DNA from: Myxococcota bacterium | Lineage (GTDB): Bacteria; Myxococcota_A; Polyangia; Polyangiales; Sandaracinaceae | Assembly: GCA_036149055.1 (NCBI GenBank) | Contig: JAYZQJ010000097.1 | Location: 17,456-81,455, forward strand | Length of the DNA: 64,000 bases | Direction: 5' to 3' | In this document: piece by piece, positions 56,542 to 64,000 of the stretch | Position numbering within the stretch: the first letter of the stretch is position 1 | Layout of the letters: the number at the start of each line of letters is the position of its first letter | The notes under the pieces: generated by a model | The model's input: only the letters and a program-made list of their open reading frames with translations | What the model was told of the DNA's origin: nothing | Databases searched by the model: none | Made by a program: the position numbers and the translations under genes

Positions 56542-56715
56542 GCGCCGAGAGCTAGGTTCGGTTCCGGCCCGCGCCCAAGCGAAACCGACGCCGCTCCGAC
56601 CCACCAGCCGCGCGTCCCCATTCGGGAACCCCCTCGGATCGGCGCTGGCTCCACGGTGTGAGAAGACCGGGACGGCAGCTTGACATCCGCCAGCGACTCT
56701 TGCAGACACGCGTCC

Positions 56716-56931
56716 ATGAGTCGTCCCGCGCGCGCCCGCAACGCTCCGTCCGAGTGGTGTCACCACCGCGCGCTGCGGTGCGAGGCCTGCGGCGCGGAGG
56801 GCTGCGGTCAAGCCGACTGCCTCGCCCACGCGTTCGACGCGGTCCGCGAGGGCGACCAGCTGACCCTCATCTGCCGCGGCTGCCAGGCCGAGCGCAGCGA
56901 GCCCGCGCGCCTCCGCGGCGTCGACGGCTGA
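56716..56931 (+). CDS. Small Cys/His-rich putative Zn-finger protein (71 aa)
   Basis: CHH, CEAC, C-x4-C-xx-H and CRGC; TTGACA at 56680-56685 upstream. Confidence 0.55.
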   Translation: MSRPARARNAPSEWCHHRALRCEACGAEGCGQADCLAHAFDAVREGDQLTLICRGCQAERSEPARLRGVDG

Positions 56932-57072
56932 GGTCGGAGTCGGGCTGGCGAGGCACGGGACCGCGGTCGCAGGACCGTCCGGGGGCGGGAGCACGGACGA
57001 CGTCGACCTATCCTCGATCGCGGGCGCGCAGTACCCTTTGTGCCCCCACGGTACGGGCGGAAGGGAAGAGAC

Positions 57073-60000
57073 GTGCGCGCGAAGATGGCGTTGAGGAGGT
57101 TCACCCTGGAGGCGGCCGGCGGCTTCCGGGGCAAGGACGCGGGCGAGCAGTTCGCGCGCGGGCTGATCGGCTGCTTCGGCGCCCTCGAAGACGGCGCGCC
57201 CGAAGGGCTGACGTTCGGGCACCAGCTCGAGGTGGTCGACCAGGGCAAGCGCGGCACCCGAACCTTGAGCGCCTGGTGGGCGCCCCGGCGCGTGGTGGTC
57301 GACGTGACCGACCGAGACGCGGTGCTGGACGCCGCCTGGAGCGAGCTGCTCCGGGCCTGCCTCCAGATGGACAGCGAGCCGCAGTACGTGGTGCTGACCA
57401 ACCAGCGGGACGTGCGGCTCTACGACCTGGCGCGAGATCGCGGCGCGCCTCGGCTCAGCGTCGCCCTGGACGAGCTGCCGAAGTACAGCGAGGCGTTCCC
57501 GTTCTTCGAGCCCGACTGGGTGCCGGGCACGACGCCGAAGATCATCAACGTCGACAAGGTGAGCAAGGAGGTCGCGGACCTGGTGGCCAAGGTGTACCGC
57601 GCCCTCGCCGCGTCGAACCCCGGCCGCACCGAGGACGTCACCCGGTTCACGCTCCAGTGCATCGTGGCGATGTTCTCCGAGGACATCGGCCTGCTGCCCA
57701 AGGAGTACTTCACCACGCTGCTCTACCGCGCGGCCGAGGAGGGCGACGCGGCGGAGCGGCTGGCCGAGCTGTTCCGCGACATGGCCACCGAGGGCAGCGA
57801 CTCGGGGGTCCCCTACTTCAACGGCGGGCTGTTCACCGACCCGGTGAGCATCGAGATCGGTGAGGCGCCGCTGAGAGCCCTGACCAAAGCGAGCGAGGCG
57901 AACTGGACCTTCGTCGACCCGCACATCTTCGGCAGCGTCTTCCAGGGCATCATGGACGACGACGAGCGCCACGCGAGCGGGGCCCACTACACCGCGCGCG
58001 AGGACATCATGAGCGTCGTGGGGCCGACCATCGTCGAGCCGTGGCGCGAGCGCATCGGCGCCGCGTCGACGCTCTCCGACCTGCAGGAGCTCTTGAGGGA
58101 GCTGAGCCAGTTCAGGGTGCTCGACCCCGCGTGCGGCAGCGGCAACTTCCTCTACGTGGCCTTCCGCGAGCTCTACAAACTGGAGACGGAGATCCTCTGC
58201 CGCGCCTACGAGTTCGCCTCGGTGAAGAAGGGCGGCAAGGTCAGCTGGGCCAGCGGCATCCGCACCACTAACTTCTACGGCATCGACATCAACCCCTTCG
58301 CGGTCGAGCTGGCGAAGACCACCCTGAACATCGCGAAGAAGATCGCCCACGAGGAGCGCAAGGCGACCGTGATCGAGCTGTTCGAGCAGAACCTGCTCGA
58401 CACCGATCCGTCGCTCCCGCTCGACAACCTCGACGAGAACATCCTGTGTGCGGACGCGCTGTTCACCGAGTGGCCGGAGGTGGACGCGATCGTGGGAAAC
58501 CCGCCGTTCTTGGGTGGCAAGAAGGTTCGACGAGAGCTCGGGACCGCGTACGGCAAACGTCTCCGCGACCGCTATCCGGAGGTGCACGGTGGCGCCGACT
58601 TCTGTGTCTACTGGTTCCGGCGGGCTCACACTCGCCTGCCGGACGTCGGACGGGCCGGACTTATCGGAACGAGCGGAATCCGGGTGGGCAACTCCCACAA
58701 AGCTAGCTTGGCCTTCATCACAGCCACCGACGGTACGATCTGCCACGCCATTTCAGAGCGAGAGTGGCCAGGCGATGCCGTGGTCCATGTGTCGATCGTT
58801 AACTGGACCAAGGGCCCACACCGCGGCCCCCATCGCCTCATTGTGGGCGACCGGGTTGTATCTCTGCAGGCAATACCTTCGCATCTACAGCTACACACTG
58901 ATACCGGCAGTGCAGTTAAACTGTCCGCCAACTCCGGCGGATGTTCGACCGGAGTCGACTTCGGCACCAAGAGCTTCTATCTGAGCACCGACGACATCGG
59001 AAGGCTTGCGGACGACAGCCCGAACCTCACGTCCTTCGTCAAGGTCGTAGCCACAGGCGACTCGCTCTTGGCTGGCCGCATCGCTGATCTCGCCTTGGAC
59101 TTCAGCACCAGCTCCACCGAGGCGGAAGCCCGGGCTCTCGGTCCGAAATCAGTTTGGAAGTTGCTCCGCGAGAGGGTCTACCCCGTCGTGCAGGCGAAGG
59201 GCAGCGGCGACAACGGCTGGAAGAAGCGGTGGTGGCAGCCGAGAAGACCGTATCGGAAGTTCTTCGACGAAGCAGATCGTCTGGACAGGTACATCGCATG
59301 CGGGAGACCCCAGGCTCGCCCGATCTTCATGTTTATCTCTGCGGCATTCCTACCGAGTTCGACGCTTCAGCTGTTCGCACTGCACGACGACTACTCATTT
59401 GGCATACTTCAGTCTCGGTTGCACTGGGCCTGGACACGAGCAAAGGGCACCCGGCTGAAGGCCGACGTTCGGCACACCGCGCAGGTCTGGGAGACGTTTC
59501 CATGGCCTCAGCAACCCGGTGAGGACGAAGTAGAAGCCGTTGGGCAGGCAGCTCAGCGGCTACGTGCCGTCCGGCATCAACTGATGGAAGAAAACGGTTG
59601 GTCCCTACGCGACCTCCACCGCTCGGCTGAGGTCGAAGGGCCGCACCCTCTCAAGGAGGCGCAGGCCGCGCTCGACGCCGCGGTCGAGGCGGCGTACGGC
59701 AAGCCGGCCGATCAGGAGGCGACCGAGTTCTTGCTCGAGCTGAACCAGATCCTCGCCGAGGACGAGGCGGCGGGCGAGACCATCCAGGGCCCGGGGCTGC
59801 CAGCCGGCCTCGACCCGAAGGACCCGCGCTGGTTCTCCACCGACTGCATCGAGCCGCCGCCCCTCCCGGACGCCGGGGAACAGGTCTGGCAGGGCTTCGC
59901 GCTTGGGGAGCAGGTGGCCGCTGAGTTCGAAGGAGAAGAGTGGGTTGGAGAGGTAGTCGATCCAGCCGACTACGAGGAGCCCCTCGAGCGCGGATGCATC

Positions 60001-60087
60001 CGCGTGTACTTCCCCCGCGACGACACCTGGCTCGACATGACACCGGACGAGCTGACGCGAAAGAAGAAGGGCCGCGCCCGTGCCTGA
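57073..60087 (+). CDS. MmeI-like (type IIL/IIG) DNA adenine methyltransferase with specificity region
   Basis: PYFNGGLF, IFGSVFQ, GAHYT, VLDPACGSGNFL, YGIDINPFA, IVGNPPF, FGILQSRLH and ETFPWP; start GTG 57073 or ATG 57085. Confidence 0.9.
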   Translation: MRAKMALRRFTLEAAGGFRGKDAGEQFARGLIGCFGALEDGAPEGLTFGHQLEVVDQGKRGTRTLSAWWAPRRVVVDVTDRDAVLDAAWSELLRACLQMDSEPQYVVLTNQRDVRLYDLARDRGAPRLSVALDELPKYSEAFPFFEPDWVPGTTPKIINVDKVSKEVADLVAKVYRALAASNPGRTEDVTRFTLQCIVAMFSEDIGLLPKEYFTTLLYRAAEEGDAAERLAELFRDMATEGSDSGVPYFNGGLFTDPVSIEIGEAPLRALTKASEANWTFVDPHIFGSVFQGIMDDDERHASGAHYTAREDIMSVVGPTIVEPWRERIGAASTLSDLQELLRELSQFRVLDPACGSGNFLYVAFRELYKLETEILCRAYEFASVKKGGKVSWASGIRTTNFYGIDINPFAVELAKTTLNIAKKIAHEERKATVIELFEQNLLDTDPSLPLDNLDENILCADALFTEWPEVDAIVGNPPFLGGKKVRRELGTAYGKRLRDRYPEVHGGADFCVYWFRRAHTRLPDVGRAGLIGTSGIRVGNSHKASLAFITATDGTICHAISEREWPGDAVVHVSIVNWTKGPHRGPHRLIVGDRVVSLQAIPSHLQLHTDTGSAVKLSANSGGCSTGVDFGTKSFYLSTDDIGRLADDSPNLTSFVKVVATGDSLLAGRIADLALDFSTSSTEAEARALGPKSVWKLLRERVYPVVQAKGSGDNGWKKRWWQPRRPYRKFFDEADRLDRYIACGRPQARPIFMFISAAFLPSSTLQLFALHDDYSFGILQSRLHWAWTRAKGTRLKADVRHTAQVWETFPWPQQPGEDEVEAVGQAAQRLRAVRHQLMEENGWSLRDLHRSAEVEGPHPLKEAQAALDAAVEAAYGKPADQEATEFLLELNQILAEDEAAGETIQGPGLPAGLDPKDPRWFSTDCIEPPPLPDAGEQVWQGFALGEQVAAEFEGEEWVGEVVDPADYEEPLERGCIRVYFPRDDTWLDMTPDELTRKKKGRARA

Positions 60088-63000
60088 GACCGTGGCCGAC
60101 GTACCCGCCCTCGCCGCGCTCTGGGACGCCGAGAAGAACGGCGAGCCAGCCGAGCGCGCGCTGTCCCGCAGCCACCGCTCCGCGTGGTGGAGGTGCGAGA
60201 AGGGCCACTCCTTCCAGCGCAGCCCGCGCGCGCTGTCGCGCAAGACCGAGTGCCCGACCTGCGCGGTCAGCGGCTCGAGCTTCGCCGATGAGCACCCCGC
60301 GCTCGCCAAGCGCTGGCACCCGAGCAAGAACGGCGTGAAGCCGAACGCGGTCTCTGCGGCGCACACCGGAGCCGTGTGGTGGGTGTGCGAGGAGGGGCAC
60401 ACCTTCGAGCGCTCGCCGCTCCAGATGGCGGCCGACCAGAGCTGCCCGCACTGCGCCCTGCACCGCGACTCGCTCGCGGCGCGCTTCCCCGAGATCGCGG
60501 CCGAGTGGCACCCGCACGACAACGGCGCGCTCACCCCCGACCAGATCGAGCCGGACCACAAGATGACCGCGCGCTGGCTGTGCGCGAAGGGACACGCCTT
60601 CTCGGCCACGGTGCGCTCGCGGACCCGCAGCCACGGCCGCTGCCCGCTCTGCTACGGCGCGTGGACGATGGACTCGATCCGGAGCTTCGTGAAGTCGCTC
60701 CTCGGCCACGTCGACGTGCTGAACGAGAGCGAGCTCTTCGCGCTGGCGATGCAGGCGGGCGCGCTGCGGGGCGCCGCCTCGCGCGCCTTCGTGATGGCGC
60801 TCTGCACCGGCCGCTTCCCCGAGTCGGAGCTGGAGAAGTTCGCCAACGACCAGCCTTCGCTCGTCGACGACTTCGCCGAGACGCCCGAGCTGACCCTGGA
60901 GCTGGTCGAGGTCAAGCAGCGCAAGGAGGCGGCCGACAAGCCCGACGACCCGTTCGCGCTGCCTGCGGCGCCGGATGCGGACTACGAGCCGGACGACGGC
61001 GAGATCGACGTCTCGGCGACGCTGACCGCCCAGCAGGAGGAGAGCGCGGACGACGAAGAGGCGTCGGAGGACGCGCTGCCGGTCGTGCAGACCCGGGACG
61101 CGCTCGCCGCGCTCGACAGCCCGCTGATCGCCAGCGCCGACGCCGAGACCGTGCGCTTCCTGCTCGACAGCGCCAAGGCCAAGCTCTGGCGCCACGCCTA
61201 CAAGGACCCCGAGCACGCCGAGGCCCAGGCCCGCGCCTTCGAGGGCGACGCCTACTCCTCGCTCGTGCGGAATCGGTTCCTCGAGGAGTTCGACGCGGCC
61301 AGGTCGATGGAGCTCCCGGCCGGCTACGCGTTCCGGCCCACGCCGGAGAGCGACATCGCCGAGCCGAACCTGATGCAGCGGCACGTCGCGGTCAGCGTGG
61401 CCAAGGAGCGCCGCTTCGGTAACTGGTCGGGCATGGGCGCGGGCAAGACGCTGAGCGCCATCGTGGCCACCCGGCTGGTCGAGGCGGATCTCAGCGTCAT
61501 CTGCTGCCCGAACGCGGTGGTGGGCAACTGGGAGAAGGAGGTGAAGAACGCCTTCCCCGACGCCCAGGTGCAGTGCAAGACCTGGACGCCGGAGTGGGAC
61601 GAGCTTCAGCGGGGCCCGCGCTACCTCGTGATGAACTTCGAGCAGTTCCAGCAGCCGGACTCGGAGGCGAGCCTCGTCGGCTTCCTGGATCGCTACGTCG
61701 TGGACTTCGTCGTCGTCGACGAGATCCACTTCGCCAAGCAGCGCAACCCGACCGAGATGTCCAAGCGGAAGCGGCTCGTTCAGGGCCTCATCCTGGAGGC
61801 GGGCAAGCGCAACGCCGATCTCTGCGTGCTCGGCATGTCCGGCACCCCCGTCATCAACGAGCTCCAGGAGGGCAAGAGCCTGGTCGAGATGATCACCGGC
61901 CACCGGCACGACGAGCTGGAGACCAAGGCCACGGTCCAGAACTGCATGCGCCTGTACCAGCGCCTCGTCACCCTCGGCACCCGCTGGCGCCCCGCCTACA
62001 AGACGCAGCTCGACGAGCAGAAGGTCGAGGTCGACTGCGTCGAGCACCTCGAGGCCATCCGCGCGGTCGCCCGCGGCACCGTGCTCGAAATGGAGCAGGT
62101 GCTGACCCAGGTCCGGCTGGAGGTCATCCGCGAGCACCTCGAGCCCGGCAAGAAGATCCTGATCTACACCCACTACGTCGACGGCATCGTCGAGCAGCTG
62201 CGCGAGGCGGTCATCGAGGCGGGGCTCCGGCCCGGCCTCTTCACGGGCAGCAGCGACGACACGGACCTCGACGAGTTCAAGAAGCCGGGCGGCACGGTCG
62301 ACGTGCTCATCGCGTCCAGTCGGGTCAGCACCGGCGTCGACGGCCTCCAGCGGGTCTGCAACCGGCTGATCCTCAACTCGCTGCCGTGGACCAACGCCGA
62401 GTACGAGCAGCTGCGCGCCCGCCTCTGGCGCCAGGGCAGCCGCTTCGACCGGGTCGAGGTCATCATCCCCGTCACCTACGCCTACGTGAACGGCGAGCGC
62501 TGGTCCTACTGCGAGTCGAAGCTCCACCGGCTGGAGTACAAGAAGAGCATCGCCGACGCCGCCGTGGACGGAGTGGTCCCGGAGGGCAACCTGCGCACGC
62601 CGGCCCAGGCCCAGCAGGACATCATGGGCTGGCTCGAGCGGCTGGAGACCGGCGTCGTCGAGACGATCGCGCGCCACCAGATCGAGGTGCCGCTCTCGCG
62701 CGAGCCGGGCGACGTGCAGCGCCGCACCCGCCAGTACGGCGACTTCTCGAAGCTGAACAACCGCTGGTACGCGTCGAACAGCCAGAAGACGCACGCGCGG
62801 CTGGAGGCCAACCCCGAGGAGTGGGCCCACTACCACACGATGTATCAGGAGCTCCGCAAGAGCTGGAGCGTCGTGCCCTTCCAGGAGGAGATCCGCTGGC
62901 TCGAGAAGCGCGAGGGCCTGACGGTCGCCGACCTCGGCTGCGGCGAAGCCAAGATCGCGGAGGCGGTGGGCGAGCGCCACCGCATCCACAGCTTCGACCA

Positions 63001-63358
63001 CGTGGCCATCGACGAGCGCGTCCTCGCCTGCGACATCGCGGCCGTCCCCCTCGACGACGCCAGCGTCGAGGTGGCGATCCTCTGCCTCGCGCTGATGGGC
63101 GCCAACTCCACCGACTACATCCGCGAGGCGCACCGCCTCCTGGAGATCGACGGCCAGCTCCACATCTGGGAGCCGGCCAGCTACTTCGACGACGTCTCCG
63201 CCTTCTGCGGCGCCCTCGCGCGCCTCGGCTTCGAGGTCGTACCCGCCAGCAAGCAAGGCGACTTCATGCGCATCTACGCCTACAAGAACGCGAGCGCTCC
63301 GGACCCGAACCTGACGCTCCCGTTCCGCGGCAGAGGCGACTCCCAGAGCGACCGATAG
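60080..63358 (+). CDS. Triple Zn-ribbon + SF2 (SNF2-like) helicase + Rrp8-like SAM methyltransferase fusion (1092 aa)
   Basis: Three WxCxxGH...CPxC units; GMGAGKT, VVVDEIH, MSGTP, TGVDGLQ, PWT and QLRARLWRQG; C-terminal VADLGCGEA, IHSFD, CDIAAVPL and CLALMG; 8-bp overlap with the MTase gene. Confidence 0.9.
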   Translation: MPETVADVPALAALWDAEKNGEPAERALSRSHRSAWWRCEKGHSFQRSPRALSRKTECPTCAVSGSSFADEHPALAKRWHPSKNGVKPNAVSAAHTGAVWWVCEEGHTFERSPLQMAADQSCPHCALHRDSLAARFPEIAAEWHPHDNGALTPDQIEPDHKMTARWLCAKGHAFSATVRSRTRSHGRCPLCYGAWTMDSIRSFVKSLLGHVDVLNESELFALAMQAGALRGAASRAFVMALCTGRFPESELEKFANDQPSLVDDFAETPELTLELVEVKQRKEAADKPDDPFALPAAPDADYEPDDGEIDVSATLTAQQEESADDEEASEDALPVVQTRDALAALDSPLIASADAETVRFLLDSAKAKLWRHAYKDPEHAEAQARAFEGDAYSSLVRNRFLEEFDAARSMELPAGYAFRPTPESDIAEPNLMQRHVAVSVAKERRFGNWSGMGAGKTLSAIVATRLVEADLSVICCPNAVVGNWEKEVKNAFPDAQVQCKTWTPEWDELQRGPRYLVMNFEQFQQPDSEASLVGFLDRYVVDFVVVDEIHFAKQRNPTEMSKRKRLVQGLILEAGKRNADLCVLGMSGTPVINELQEGKSLVEMITGHRHDELETKATVQNCMRLYQRLVTLGTRWRPAYKTQLDEQKVEVDCVEHLEAIRAVARGTVLEMEQVLTQVRLEVIREHLEPGKKILIYTHYVDGIVEQLREAVIEAGLRPGLFTGSSDDTDLDEFKKPGGTVDVLIASSRVSTGVDGLQRVCNRLILNSLPWTNAEYEQLRARLWRQGSRFDRVEVIIPVTYAYVNGERWSYCESKLHRLEYKKSIADAAVDGVVPEGNLRTPAQAQQDIMGWLERLETGVVETIARHQIEVPLSREPGDVQRRTRQYGDFSKLNNRWYASNSQKTHARLEANPEEWAHYHTMYQELRKSWSVVPFQEEIRWLEKREGLTVADLGCGEAKIAEAVGERHRIHSFDHVAIDERVLACDIAAVPLDDASVEVAILCLALMGANSTDYIREAHRLLEIDGQLHIWEPASYFDDVSAFCGALARLGFEVVPASKQGDFMRIYAYKNASAPDPNLTLPFRGRGDSQSDR

Positions 63359-63415: not shown

Positions 63416-64000
63416 TCACGCCTCGTCGGTCACCGGCTCGTCGACGACCGGGATCGGGGGGACGGGGTCCTCGGGGCTCGGCGCGTCCGGGTCGTCCTCG
63501 ACCACCGGCTCCTCGGGCTCGTCCTCGCGGCCGCCGTTGGCGAAGCTGCGGCGGTGGCGGTCGAGGGGCGCCATCGCGCGCTGGAAGGCGGCGAGGCTCT
63601 CCTCGTCGTCGGGGTCGACCCAGCCGACCATCGCGCGGCCGTAGGCGGCGATCGCCTCGGCGAGGACGGTGATCTGGGCGGCGACCGCGCGACCGTCGGG
63701 CACGTCGACGGCGGTCTCGCCGACCCCGAGCGCCTCGCCGAAGGCCGCGTGCTGCGCGCGCACGAAGGGGAGGAAGTCGGGGCCGATGAGGGCCTCGATC
63801 TCGGGCTCGAGGCCGAGCTCCTCGACGCGGCGGAGGATGTGGTCGCTCGTGGTGTAGAGCTCGCTGTACTCCGCGGTCACGAACTTGGTGCCCTGCGGGA
63901 GCATGCGGAGGCGAAGCGTGGTGACGCGCTCCTGCTTCTCACCGGTGGTGACGCGCGCGAGGCCGTCGAGGATCATGCGACCCCCGACGTACGCCCCGCC
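63416..64000 (-). CDS. Helical hypothetical protein with acidic Pro-rich tail, probably 5'-truncated by the window edge
   Basis: Frame stays open past ATG 63976 to base 64000. Confidence 0.7.
   Translation of the reverse strand, partial: GGAYVGGRMILDGLARVTTGEKQERVTTLRLRMLPQGTKFVTAEYSELYTTSDHILRRVEELGLEPEIEALIGPDFLPFVRAQHAAFGEALGVGETAVDVPDGRAVAAQITVLAEAIAAYGRAMVGWVDPDDEESLAAFQRAMAPLDRHRRSFANGGREDEPEEPVVEDDPDAPSPEDPVPPIPVVDEPVTDEA

Follow-up and report, generated by a model that had tools for sequence, protein, structure and literature searches.

The eukaryotic enzymes Rrp8 and nucleomethylin (NML) make N1-methyladenine (m1A), which disrupts base pairing (PMC3553958, bioRxiv 313874). An archaeal m1A628 in 23S rRNA has been reported, and bacterial rRNA is described in the same source as normally free of m1A (PMC3553958). 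It was proposed that MmeI homologues without a nuclease provide both the specificity and the self-marking for a helicase and a GIY-YIG nuclease that are separate proteins (PMC2731913). YeeA (DnmA) makes N6-methyladenine (m6A), and the account of YeeABC reports that it gave no restriction of transformation (PMC7261158). Here we describe a locus in which both themes are found. It lies in a stretch of 64,000 nucleotides from a Myxococcota bacterium (Sandaracinaceae; contig JAYZQJ010000097.1), hereafter the window. It consists of two overlapping genes, one for an MmeI-like methyltransferase (the partner) and one for a fusion of a Snf2-type ATPase with an Rrp8-family methyltransferase (MTase) domain (the motor gene).

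Rrp8-Family Domain

The first-pass annotation of the window had reported an Rrp8/NML (Methyltransf_8) pattern along the full length of the interval 62735–63300, including the N-terminal helical part. The interval corresponds to residues 886–1074 of an intact open reading frame (ORF), and the pattern is borne out. The Pfam profile Methyltransf_8 (PF05148) matches residues 887–1073 over profile positions 13–200 of 219 (E-value 1.3e-49), at 169 bits against a cut-off of 27. The generic profiles Methyltransf_11, Methyltransf_25 and Methyltransf_31 reach just 13–18 bits. The sole sequence match in the PDB is human NML, 2zfu (E-value 1.5e-35; 1.2e-64 with a profile).

The AlphaFold model of the domain has a predicted local distance difference test (pLDDT) score of 92.6. 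Compared with 48,161 chains, its best match is also 2zfu, with a Z-score of 27.7 and a root-mean-square deviation of 1.9 Å over 198 residues at 35% identity, followed by SAMTOR (15.1) and RlmA(I) (13.1). The superposition on 2zfu spans positions 9–208 of the model, so that the N-terminal helices are covered. The three top ESM Atlas clusters for the domain are all Methyltransf_8, and one bacterial fragment (P0468) is annotated by NCBI as "RRP8 family". A fold search of BFVD with the domain returned generic methylases only.

The S-adenosylmethionine (SAM) motif I of Rrp8 is intact, with D951, G953, C954, G955, D973 and D985 present in all 101 close relatives. The motif I glycine is required for SAM binding in yeast Rrp8 (PMC3553958). 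These six residues are common with eukaryotic Rrp8, as are N893, H919, W929, P933, L1003, M1006, G1007, E1016 and R1019, which are likewise invariant (101/101). The DPPY-type motif of DNA amino-methylases is not present in the 1092-aa protein. Among the six motif strings quoted in the first pass, four are exact letter for letter and two have a dot spacing that is off by one.

Since the profile match is full-length, the fold is that of NML with its N-terminal helices, and motif I is intact, the domain belongs to the PF05148 family. It is a genuine Rrp8/NML-family domain, N-terminal helices included. A generic small-molecule methyltransferase is ruled out by the Pfam scores and by the distance between the best and the next fold match.

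Architecture of the Fusion Protein

The Rrp8-family domain follows a superfamily 2 (SF2) ATPase region at about residues 410–865. The Walker A motif is at residues 450–457 and the DEIH box at 547–550, and G455, K456, D547, E548 and H550 are invariant in all 101 close full-length sequences. Among the Foldseek matches listed, those other than 2zfu are nearly all Snf2-family enzymes (Mot1, BRG1, Chd1, ISWI). With its Walker A motif, DExH box and Snf2-like fold, the motor is a Snf2-family ATPase. It had been called a bacterial helicase; an SF2-type motor is indeed present, but Snf2-type ATPase is the better name.

The N-terminal DUF4379 region resembles modules of phage endonucleases (PHROG 559, HNH endonuclease, 4.5e-8; PHROG 681, endonuclease, 4.2e-6). 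The helical region downstream contains an acidic linker with pLDDT below 50 at residues 269–333, and ESM Atlas gave no usable match with residues 190–430. Mean identity over the 101 close full-length relatives is 74% for the ATPase, 69% for the MTase, 59% for the middle part and 56% for the zinc array; the relatives were found by the MTase region, which favours the MTase figure.

Table 1. Positions of the features of the two-gene locus in the window.
Feature	Position	Strand	Basis and remarks
Rrp8/nucleomethylin (Methyltransf_8) domain	62738..63298	+	Pfam, PDB, fold match, invariant residues; SAM motif I at 62930-62944
1092-aa fusion: three zinc modules, helical domain, Snf2-type ATPase, Rrp8-family methyltransferase	60080..63358	+	Pfam, Foldseek, model
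Three DUF4379 modules (probable treble-clef zinc), residues 1-193	60080..60658	+	Pfam E-value 3.1e-37, 3 stretches
Short conserved motif in low-confidence acidic linker, residues 290-298; candidate docking site for MmeI-like partner	60947..60973	+	Paired versus unpaired comparison
Snf2-type SF2 ATPase	61307..62674	+	Pfam SNF2-rel_dom, Helicase_C; Foldseek; Walker A 61427-61450, DEIH 61718-61729
MmeI-like (type IIL) adenine methyltransferase with degenerate nuclease domain	57040..60087	+	Start GTG 57040 or ATG 57085; stop overlaps motor gene by 8 bp
PD-(D/E)xK-fold domain of partner, predicted dead	57085..57549	+	MmeI D70/E80/K82 align to A78/D88/T90
N6-adenine MTase core of partner	58072..58809	+	Motif I (DPACGSG) and motif IV (NPPF) intact
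Target-recognition region (TRD) of partner, hypervariable	58840..59529	+	Identity to relatives; lower GC

MmeI-Like Partner

The partner matches the Pfam families MmeI_N, MmeI_hel, MmeI_Mtase, MmeI_TRD and MmeI_C, the PADLOC IIG model (7.9e-229) and the MmeI structure 5hr4 (4.3e-38). The catalytic residues of MmeI are D70, E80 and K82 (PMC2731913). Neither D70 nor K82 is kept in any of 16 genome relatives or 40 metagenome matches, and the PD-(D/E)xK nuclease is predicted to be dead. Motif IV is NPPF in 12 of 15 relatives and NPPI in three. As judged from its motifs, the partner is a protein with gamma-type adenine MTase motifs and the fused TRD of type IIL, lacking the PD-ExK residues.

The TRD is 37–47% identical to that of 15 relatives, compared with 60–69% for the MTase region. 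Its GC content at third codon positions is 0.72, against 0.91–0.98 in the rest of the cassette, as would be expected from a recent exchange of the recognition domain. The window protein also has an extra 70-aa tail (59872–60084), which has no Pfam match and looks Tudor/PWWP-like by eye. It does not have the N-terminal helical extension of about 120 aa found in most relatives.

Pairing of the Two Genes

An MmeI-like gene is found in 24 of the 29 loci with at least 57% motor identity and in none of 84 more distant loci, where the 57% threshold was picked after the data had been inspected and the 84 include duplicates and 64 loci with 3 kb upstream. The five misses are two loci without upstream DNA, two entries for one contig of the long-N-terminus type, and one truncated gene. 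In the reverse search from the partner, the motor gene is downstream in 26 of 30 metagenome loci with at least 500 bp; 16 more had no room for it. Neighbour clustering revealed no third conserved gene at the paired loci, and no nuclease gene is conserved there.

All 22 paired motors have three zinc modules. The motif at residues 290–298 is seen in 21 of them (the last has a near match) and in none of 75 unpaired ORFs. The unpaired ORFs contain 0–9 modules of that zinc pattern and N-termini of 1–682 aa, some of them ended by contig edges. A relaxed form of the pattern is present in 19 of 26 metagenome loci, and four of the misses end before the linker. The sequence pattern suggests that the motif is perhaps a docking site for the partner. 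We infer that the paired clade shifted its targeting from the repeat array to the TRD of the partner.

The junction between the paired genes takes insertions: YhcG (four loci), RhuM, a PIN toxin–antitoxin pair and ABC-3C (L040, L043, L045, L155, L160, L164 and L189). The inserted genes often have 4-bp overlaps. At L159, the partner is followed by an AlbA_2–ATPase gene that runs to the end of the contig. Genome G050, of the same order as the host, carries at least two copies of the cassette (contigs C597, C141 and C56).

One RNA run, which held 9% of the words, contained fragments of contigs that are short, come from both genes and in many cases show strain differences; contigs cannot demonstrate transcription. 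A promoter and terminator scan found nothing above chance.

Distribution of the Family

In total, 374 proteins of similar length were found. When representatives at 50% identity were ranked, the top 150 included 68 with at least 750 aa, and 67 of these have SF2 motifs. A scan of 40 of the 68 showed an SF2 ATPase with a C-terminal Methyltransf_8 domain in every one. Their N-terminal modules vary: DUF4379, INT_rpt, CapR, DUF723 and sigma-70 region 4. Among 80 genome loci, ATPase and MTase are in one ORF in 65 and in separate ORFs in two, and the MTase is lacking in 13 (seven at a contig edge). A stand-alone prokaryotic Rrp8 was also looked for. The 120 short matches comprise 91 with an ATPase tail, 28 with fewer than 25 residues before the domain and one with another N-terminus, and none of them is shown to stand alone.

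Hosts of the fusion are Myxococcota, cyanobacteria, planctomycetes, verrucomicrobia, chlamydiae, Dependentiae, acidobacteria and archaea. The full-length domain is present in two of 60 relatives, where genome G023 counts only as a genome without a full-length match, and in three of 400 genomes of the phylum. Neither the search of 50,697 records of cultured phages nor the single-sequence viral scan gave a match. Two loci (L029 and L030) appear to be giant-virus contigs by our own reading. One giant-virus cluster in ESM Atlas combines Methyltransf_8 with HA repeats.

A second architecture is seen in four AT-rich proteins (P0214, P0221, P0249 and P0257), in which a ResIII-like helicase and repeats precede the MTase. 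The ResIII-type proteins included in the tree, three in number, fall among phage-type rows, so the domain has been joined to motors twice. A large picocyanobacterial clade (L108:7949-11992, L109, L111, L104; P0273-P0366) has the same Snf2 ATPase without the methylase. The N-terminus in this clade is usually RNA polymerase alpha C-terminal domain-like and sometimes has sigma region 4 modules, a possible DNA-binding part or decoy. One of its members is followed by a second helicase gene (L104:2660-5899), DISARM DrmA-like by eye.

Relation to Eukaryotic Rrp8

The domain had been described as eukaryote-type. This is right as to the Rrp8 family, but not in the sense of a recent capture. The window domain is 34–57% identical (median 40%) to other prokaryotic and viral fusions and 32–39% identical (median 33%) to eukaryotic proteins. 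Two basic signatures of the eukaryotic enzymes are absent from the fusions: RFR..N (18 of 19 eukaryote-like rows against 0 of 62 fusions) and the C.YK tail (17 of 19 against 0 of 62). Both signatures are of our own derivation, and the C.YK count is partly circular, as the eukaryote-like rows were chosen by the tail motif.

In the phylogeny proposed as a check in the first pass, the eukaryote-like rows form one side of a branch (Shimodaira–Hasegawa-like approximate likelihood ratio test, 99–100). The window lies outside it, nearest to other myxobacterial fusions. This speaks against a recent capture from a eukaryote. The sister group and the direction may be placed in more than one way, as the approximately unbiased (AU) test did not reject a clade of the window, L044 and eukaryotes (p 0.88); the constrained tree outscored the quick free tree. 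The tree of the AU test held 45 of 92 rows, without the outgroup, whose rows are very long, and without four long rows.

In the 23S rRNA hairpin taken as helix 25.1, two carriers and one genome of the same family have a C after UUG, at the position that we presume to be equivalent to yeast A645. The 23S gene of the host is not assembled in its genome data.

Genomic Context

Frequent neighbours of paired loci are McrB-like AAA_5, Mrr, Schlafen, AAA+subtilase, ABC-3C, reverse transcriptase, Fic, HipA, integrase and recombinase genes, according to a scan of 87 neighbours (two of them from the window) chosen from 159. No such defence-gene neighbourhood is seen at several paired loci, that of the window among them. 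Unpaired loci share no common neighbour apart from repeat-module genes. Runs of small INT_rpt genes flank the fusion in an archaeon and on large phage contigs (L105:5279-9496, L129:4031-9645, L027:10586-11863), and a DarTG pair lies directly upstream of one unpaired member (L064:322-2008).

m1A blocks replication, and AlkB-type enzymes could reverse it. No linked AlkB gene is seen among 203 neighbours scanned, which speaks against such a gene as the immunity gene. Clustering of ORFs of at least 90 aa revealed no conserved glycosylase-like neighbour. An Ogt-family (O6-methylguanine methyltransferase) gene is located 2 kb downstream of the Sorangium cassette (L050:15435-15992).

The cassette has 64–70% GC, compared with about 75% around it. 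A genome of the same genus (G001) has no match to the motor gene, and genomes of two other families share it at 72–79% DNA identity. In the window, a small Cys-rich ORF with two CxxC-type pairs (56680–56931, +) is just upstream of the cassette. A gene at 63416–64000 (−) is ended by the contig edge and has many paralogues in G001. Neither has a Pfam match.

Possible Function of the Cassette

We tentatively read the two overlapping genes as a restriction-modification-like cassette without a nuclease, similar to YeeAB, in which a base methyltransferase takes the nuclease's place and damages unmarked DNA. The observations behind it are the architecture, the pairing, the dead nuclease site, and the intact motifs of both methyltransferases and the ATPase. 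The setting of the Rrp8 domain is of DNA type: a Snf2 motor, zinc repeats in common with phage endonucleases, and a second fusion with a ResIII-like helicase.

The MmeI-like protein would read a short asymmetric site via its variable TRD and mark host DNA with m6A on one strand. At unmarked sites it would recruit the Snf2 motor, perhaps through the linker motif. The motor would travel along double-stranded DNA, and the Rrp8 domain would methylate the pairing face of bases, most likely N1 of adenine, and so keep incoming DNA from being replicated or transcribed. The domain would occupy the place that YeeABC-type systems give to the GIY-YIG nuclease YeeC. Where a family member is unpaired, its targeting might fall to a variable array of DNA-binding repeats.

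The boldest form of this idea is restriction by alkylation instead of cleavage: a sequence-specific MmeI subunit with a dead nuclease would load a Snf2 motor, which would then write m1A lesions along unmarked foreign DNA. It would imply enzyme-made m1A in DNA, and a motor-fused family that is possibly the source or the sister of the eukaryotic nucleolar Rrp8. In this full form, the proposal is rather unlikely. The first-pass annotation had suggested a modification-based effector. The nuclease-dead partner, the conserved pair and the frequent location among defence genes lend that suggestion real support, whereas the sister clade without the domain and the phage copies weigh against a family-wide "anti-phage writer".

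Several facts speak against the cassette as a nuclease-free restriction system. Snf2 motors work without strand separation (PMC5512222), so access to N1 would require base flipping. The net charge of the domain is negative (−8 in the window; median −5, compared with +3 in eukaryotes). All paired genes belong to a single, mostly myxobacterial clade, and the pairing counts are therefore not independent but reflect one event; 84 of 113 loci are without an MmeI-like partner within the flank examined. YhcG, which lies between the two genes in four loci, is of the PD-(D/E)xK family, and some versions of the cassette may have a nuclease. No other recognised defence gene is in the flanks of the window among the genes tested, and the host has four unlinked AlkB-family genes. 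Among 120 relatives of a Prochlorococcus member, 96 have the ATPase with intact Walker motifs but no MTase, and 95 of these 96 stop within 20 residues of the ATPase, so the motor is maintained in the absence of the domain. Finally, the fusion gene is also present on three plasmids and on large phage or viral contigs (some of them 229–501 kb), and giant viruses carry a related domain (ESM Atlas). A role in host defence leaves the phage, plasmid and giant-virus copies unexplained.

The Rrp8 domain might instead act on RNA. The partner and the motor would sense unmarked DNA, and the domain would methylate host or phage RNA (rRNA, tRNA or mRNA) at N1 of adenine, halting translation as in abortive infection. 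Every characterised family member is described as acting on RNA (PMC3553958, bioRxiv 313874, PMC3664796). The domain has the fold and the pocket residues of NML, single-stranded RNA leaves N1 exposed, and the lack of a DPPY-type motif points the same way. Against these stand the DNA type of all fused parts (Snf2 ATPase, zinc modules, endonuclease-associated repeats), the loss of the basic patches of eukaryotic Rrp8, and the C after UUG in the hairpin of two carriers. We regard an RNA-directed effector as improbable.

It is also doubtful that the motor itself is the effector and the Rrp8 domain a sensor or switch for SAM or S-adenosylhomocysteine, which might protect the methylase when a phage depletes SAM, or might license translocation. 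The second-best structural match of the domain, SAMTOR, is titled a SAM sensor; moreover, the domain is acidic, and it was lost from a whole sister clade that retains the ATPase. However, Y918, H919, W929, P933, N893 and M1006–G1007, all outside the SAM motifs, are kept as in catalytic Rrp8, where their role in the acceptor pocket is putative.

Protective or anti-restriction methylation, as in the DarB dyad, has a low probability. An element would mark its own DNA to defeat host nucleases, with the myxobacterial cassette as a mobile passenger. The family occurs on large phage contigs and plasmids, usually alone and beside repeat-rich endonuclease-type genes, and the coupling of Snf2 ATPase and methylase is an established anti-restriction theme (PMC5512222). 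DarB-type methylases, however, are N6-adenine enzymes of another family (PMC5512222). N1 methylation breaks pairing and would harm the carrier's own DNA, the phage records contain no match, and the dead-nuclease partner would be left unexplained.

An rRNA-housekeeping Rrp8, in which the motor would be a passenger of an m1A methylase, is hardly credible. The family identity and the archaeal m1A628 (PMC3553958) speak for it, but the domain is found in just 4 of 401 genomes of the phylum, absent from 14 control genomes at an E-value of 1e-15 and always fused where this can be judged, and bacterial rRNA is normally without m1A (PMC3553958).

If the reading as a nuclease-free restriction cassette is true, restriction would proceed by chemical damage instead of cutting. 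To our knowledge, m1A in DNA is known only as a lesion, and it would gain a dedicated writer. AlkB-type enzymes would gain a role in phage conflicts, and a motor-driven tool for base methylation would be at hand. Regardless of the reading, the existence of numerous prokaryotic and viral relatives of Rrp8 is relevant to where the nucleolar enzyme came from. The paired clade is the easiest experimental entry, with two genes and a cultured carrier, Sorangium So ce1000 (L050).

Comparison with Known Systems

The window domain resembles Rrp8/NML (PF05148, 2zfu), the MTase for m1A in eukaryotic 25S/28S rRNA, over its whole length including the N-terminal helices and in the invariant residues. It differs in its fusion to a Snf2 motor and zinc repeats, the lack of RFR..N and C.YK, its acidity, and its patchy and mobile distribution.

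DarB-type dyads of phages and conjugative elements likewise combine a methylase and a Snf2 ATPase in one chain on mobile DNA (PMC5512222). In DarB, the methylase occupies the N-terminus and belongs to the EcoKI/TaqI N6-adenine family (PMC5512222), whereas the window methylase is C-terminal and of Rrp8 type.

HmaA, DISARM DrmD, BREX BrxHII and MANTIS MtsD are similar in that a motor with an effector slot stands beside a self-marking methylase. Operon insertions like those at the junction are reported for hma (PMC11232893, MANTIS preprint), but HmaA and MtsD carry nucleases (PMC11232893, MANTIS preprint). DISARM, BREX and Hma models match the C-lobe of the window ATPase weakly (PADLOC E-values 1e-6 to 1e-3; DrmD 33 bits against a cut-off of 610), and neighbour clustering found no conserved core genes of these systems near the cassette. 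PADLOC and NCBIfam have no model for the fusion family. A description of a prokaryotic Rrp8 or of this fusion was not found in the literature, where supplements of comparative papers could list the family; the main texts of PMC12839542 and PMC5512222 contain no occurrence of Rrp8.

The type IIL MmeI family shares with the partner the MTase, the helical spacer, the TRD and the C-terminal domain; D70 and K82 are absent in all relatives of the partner that were checked. The closest arrangement is YeeA(DnmA)–YeeB–YeeC, in which an MmeI-like methylase without PD-ExK is followed by an SF2 motor gene (PMC2731913, PMC7261158). The window motor, by contrast, is of Snf2 type with an Rrp8 domain, and the nuclease fold of the partner still aligns to MmeI, with the residues lost. 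A conserved GIY-YIG third gene corresponding to YeeC was found neither in the clustering nor among the 87 of 159 neighbours scanned. The cassette is a real, undescribed variant of the theme of nuclease-less MmeI plus motor, and it is categorically new just if the methylase is the weapon.

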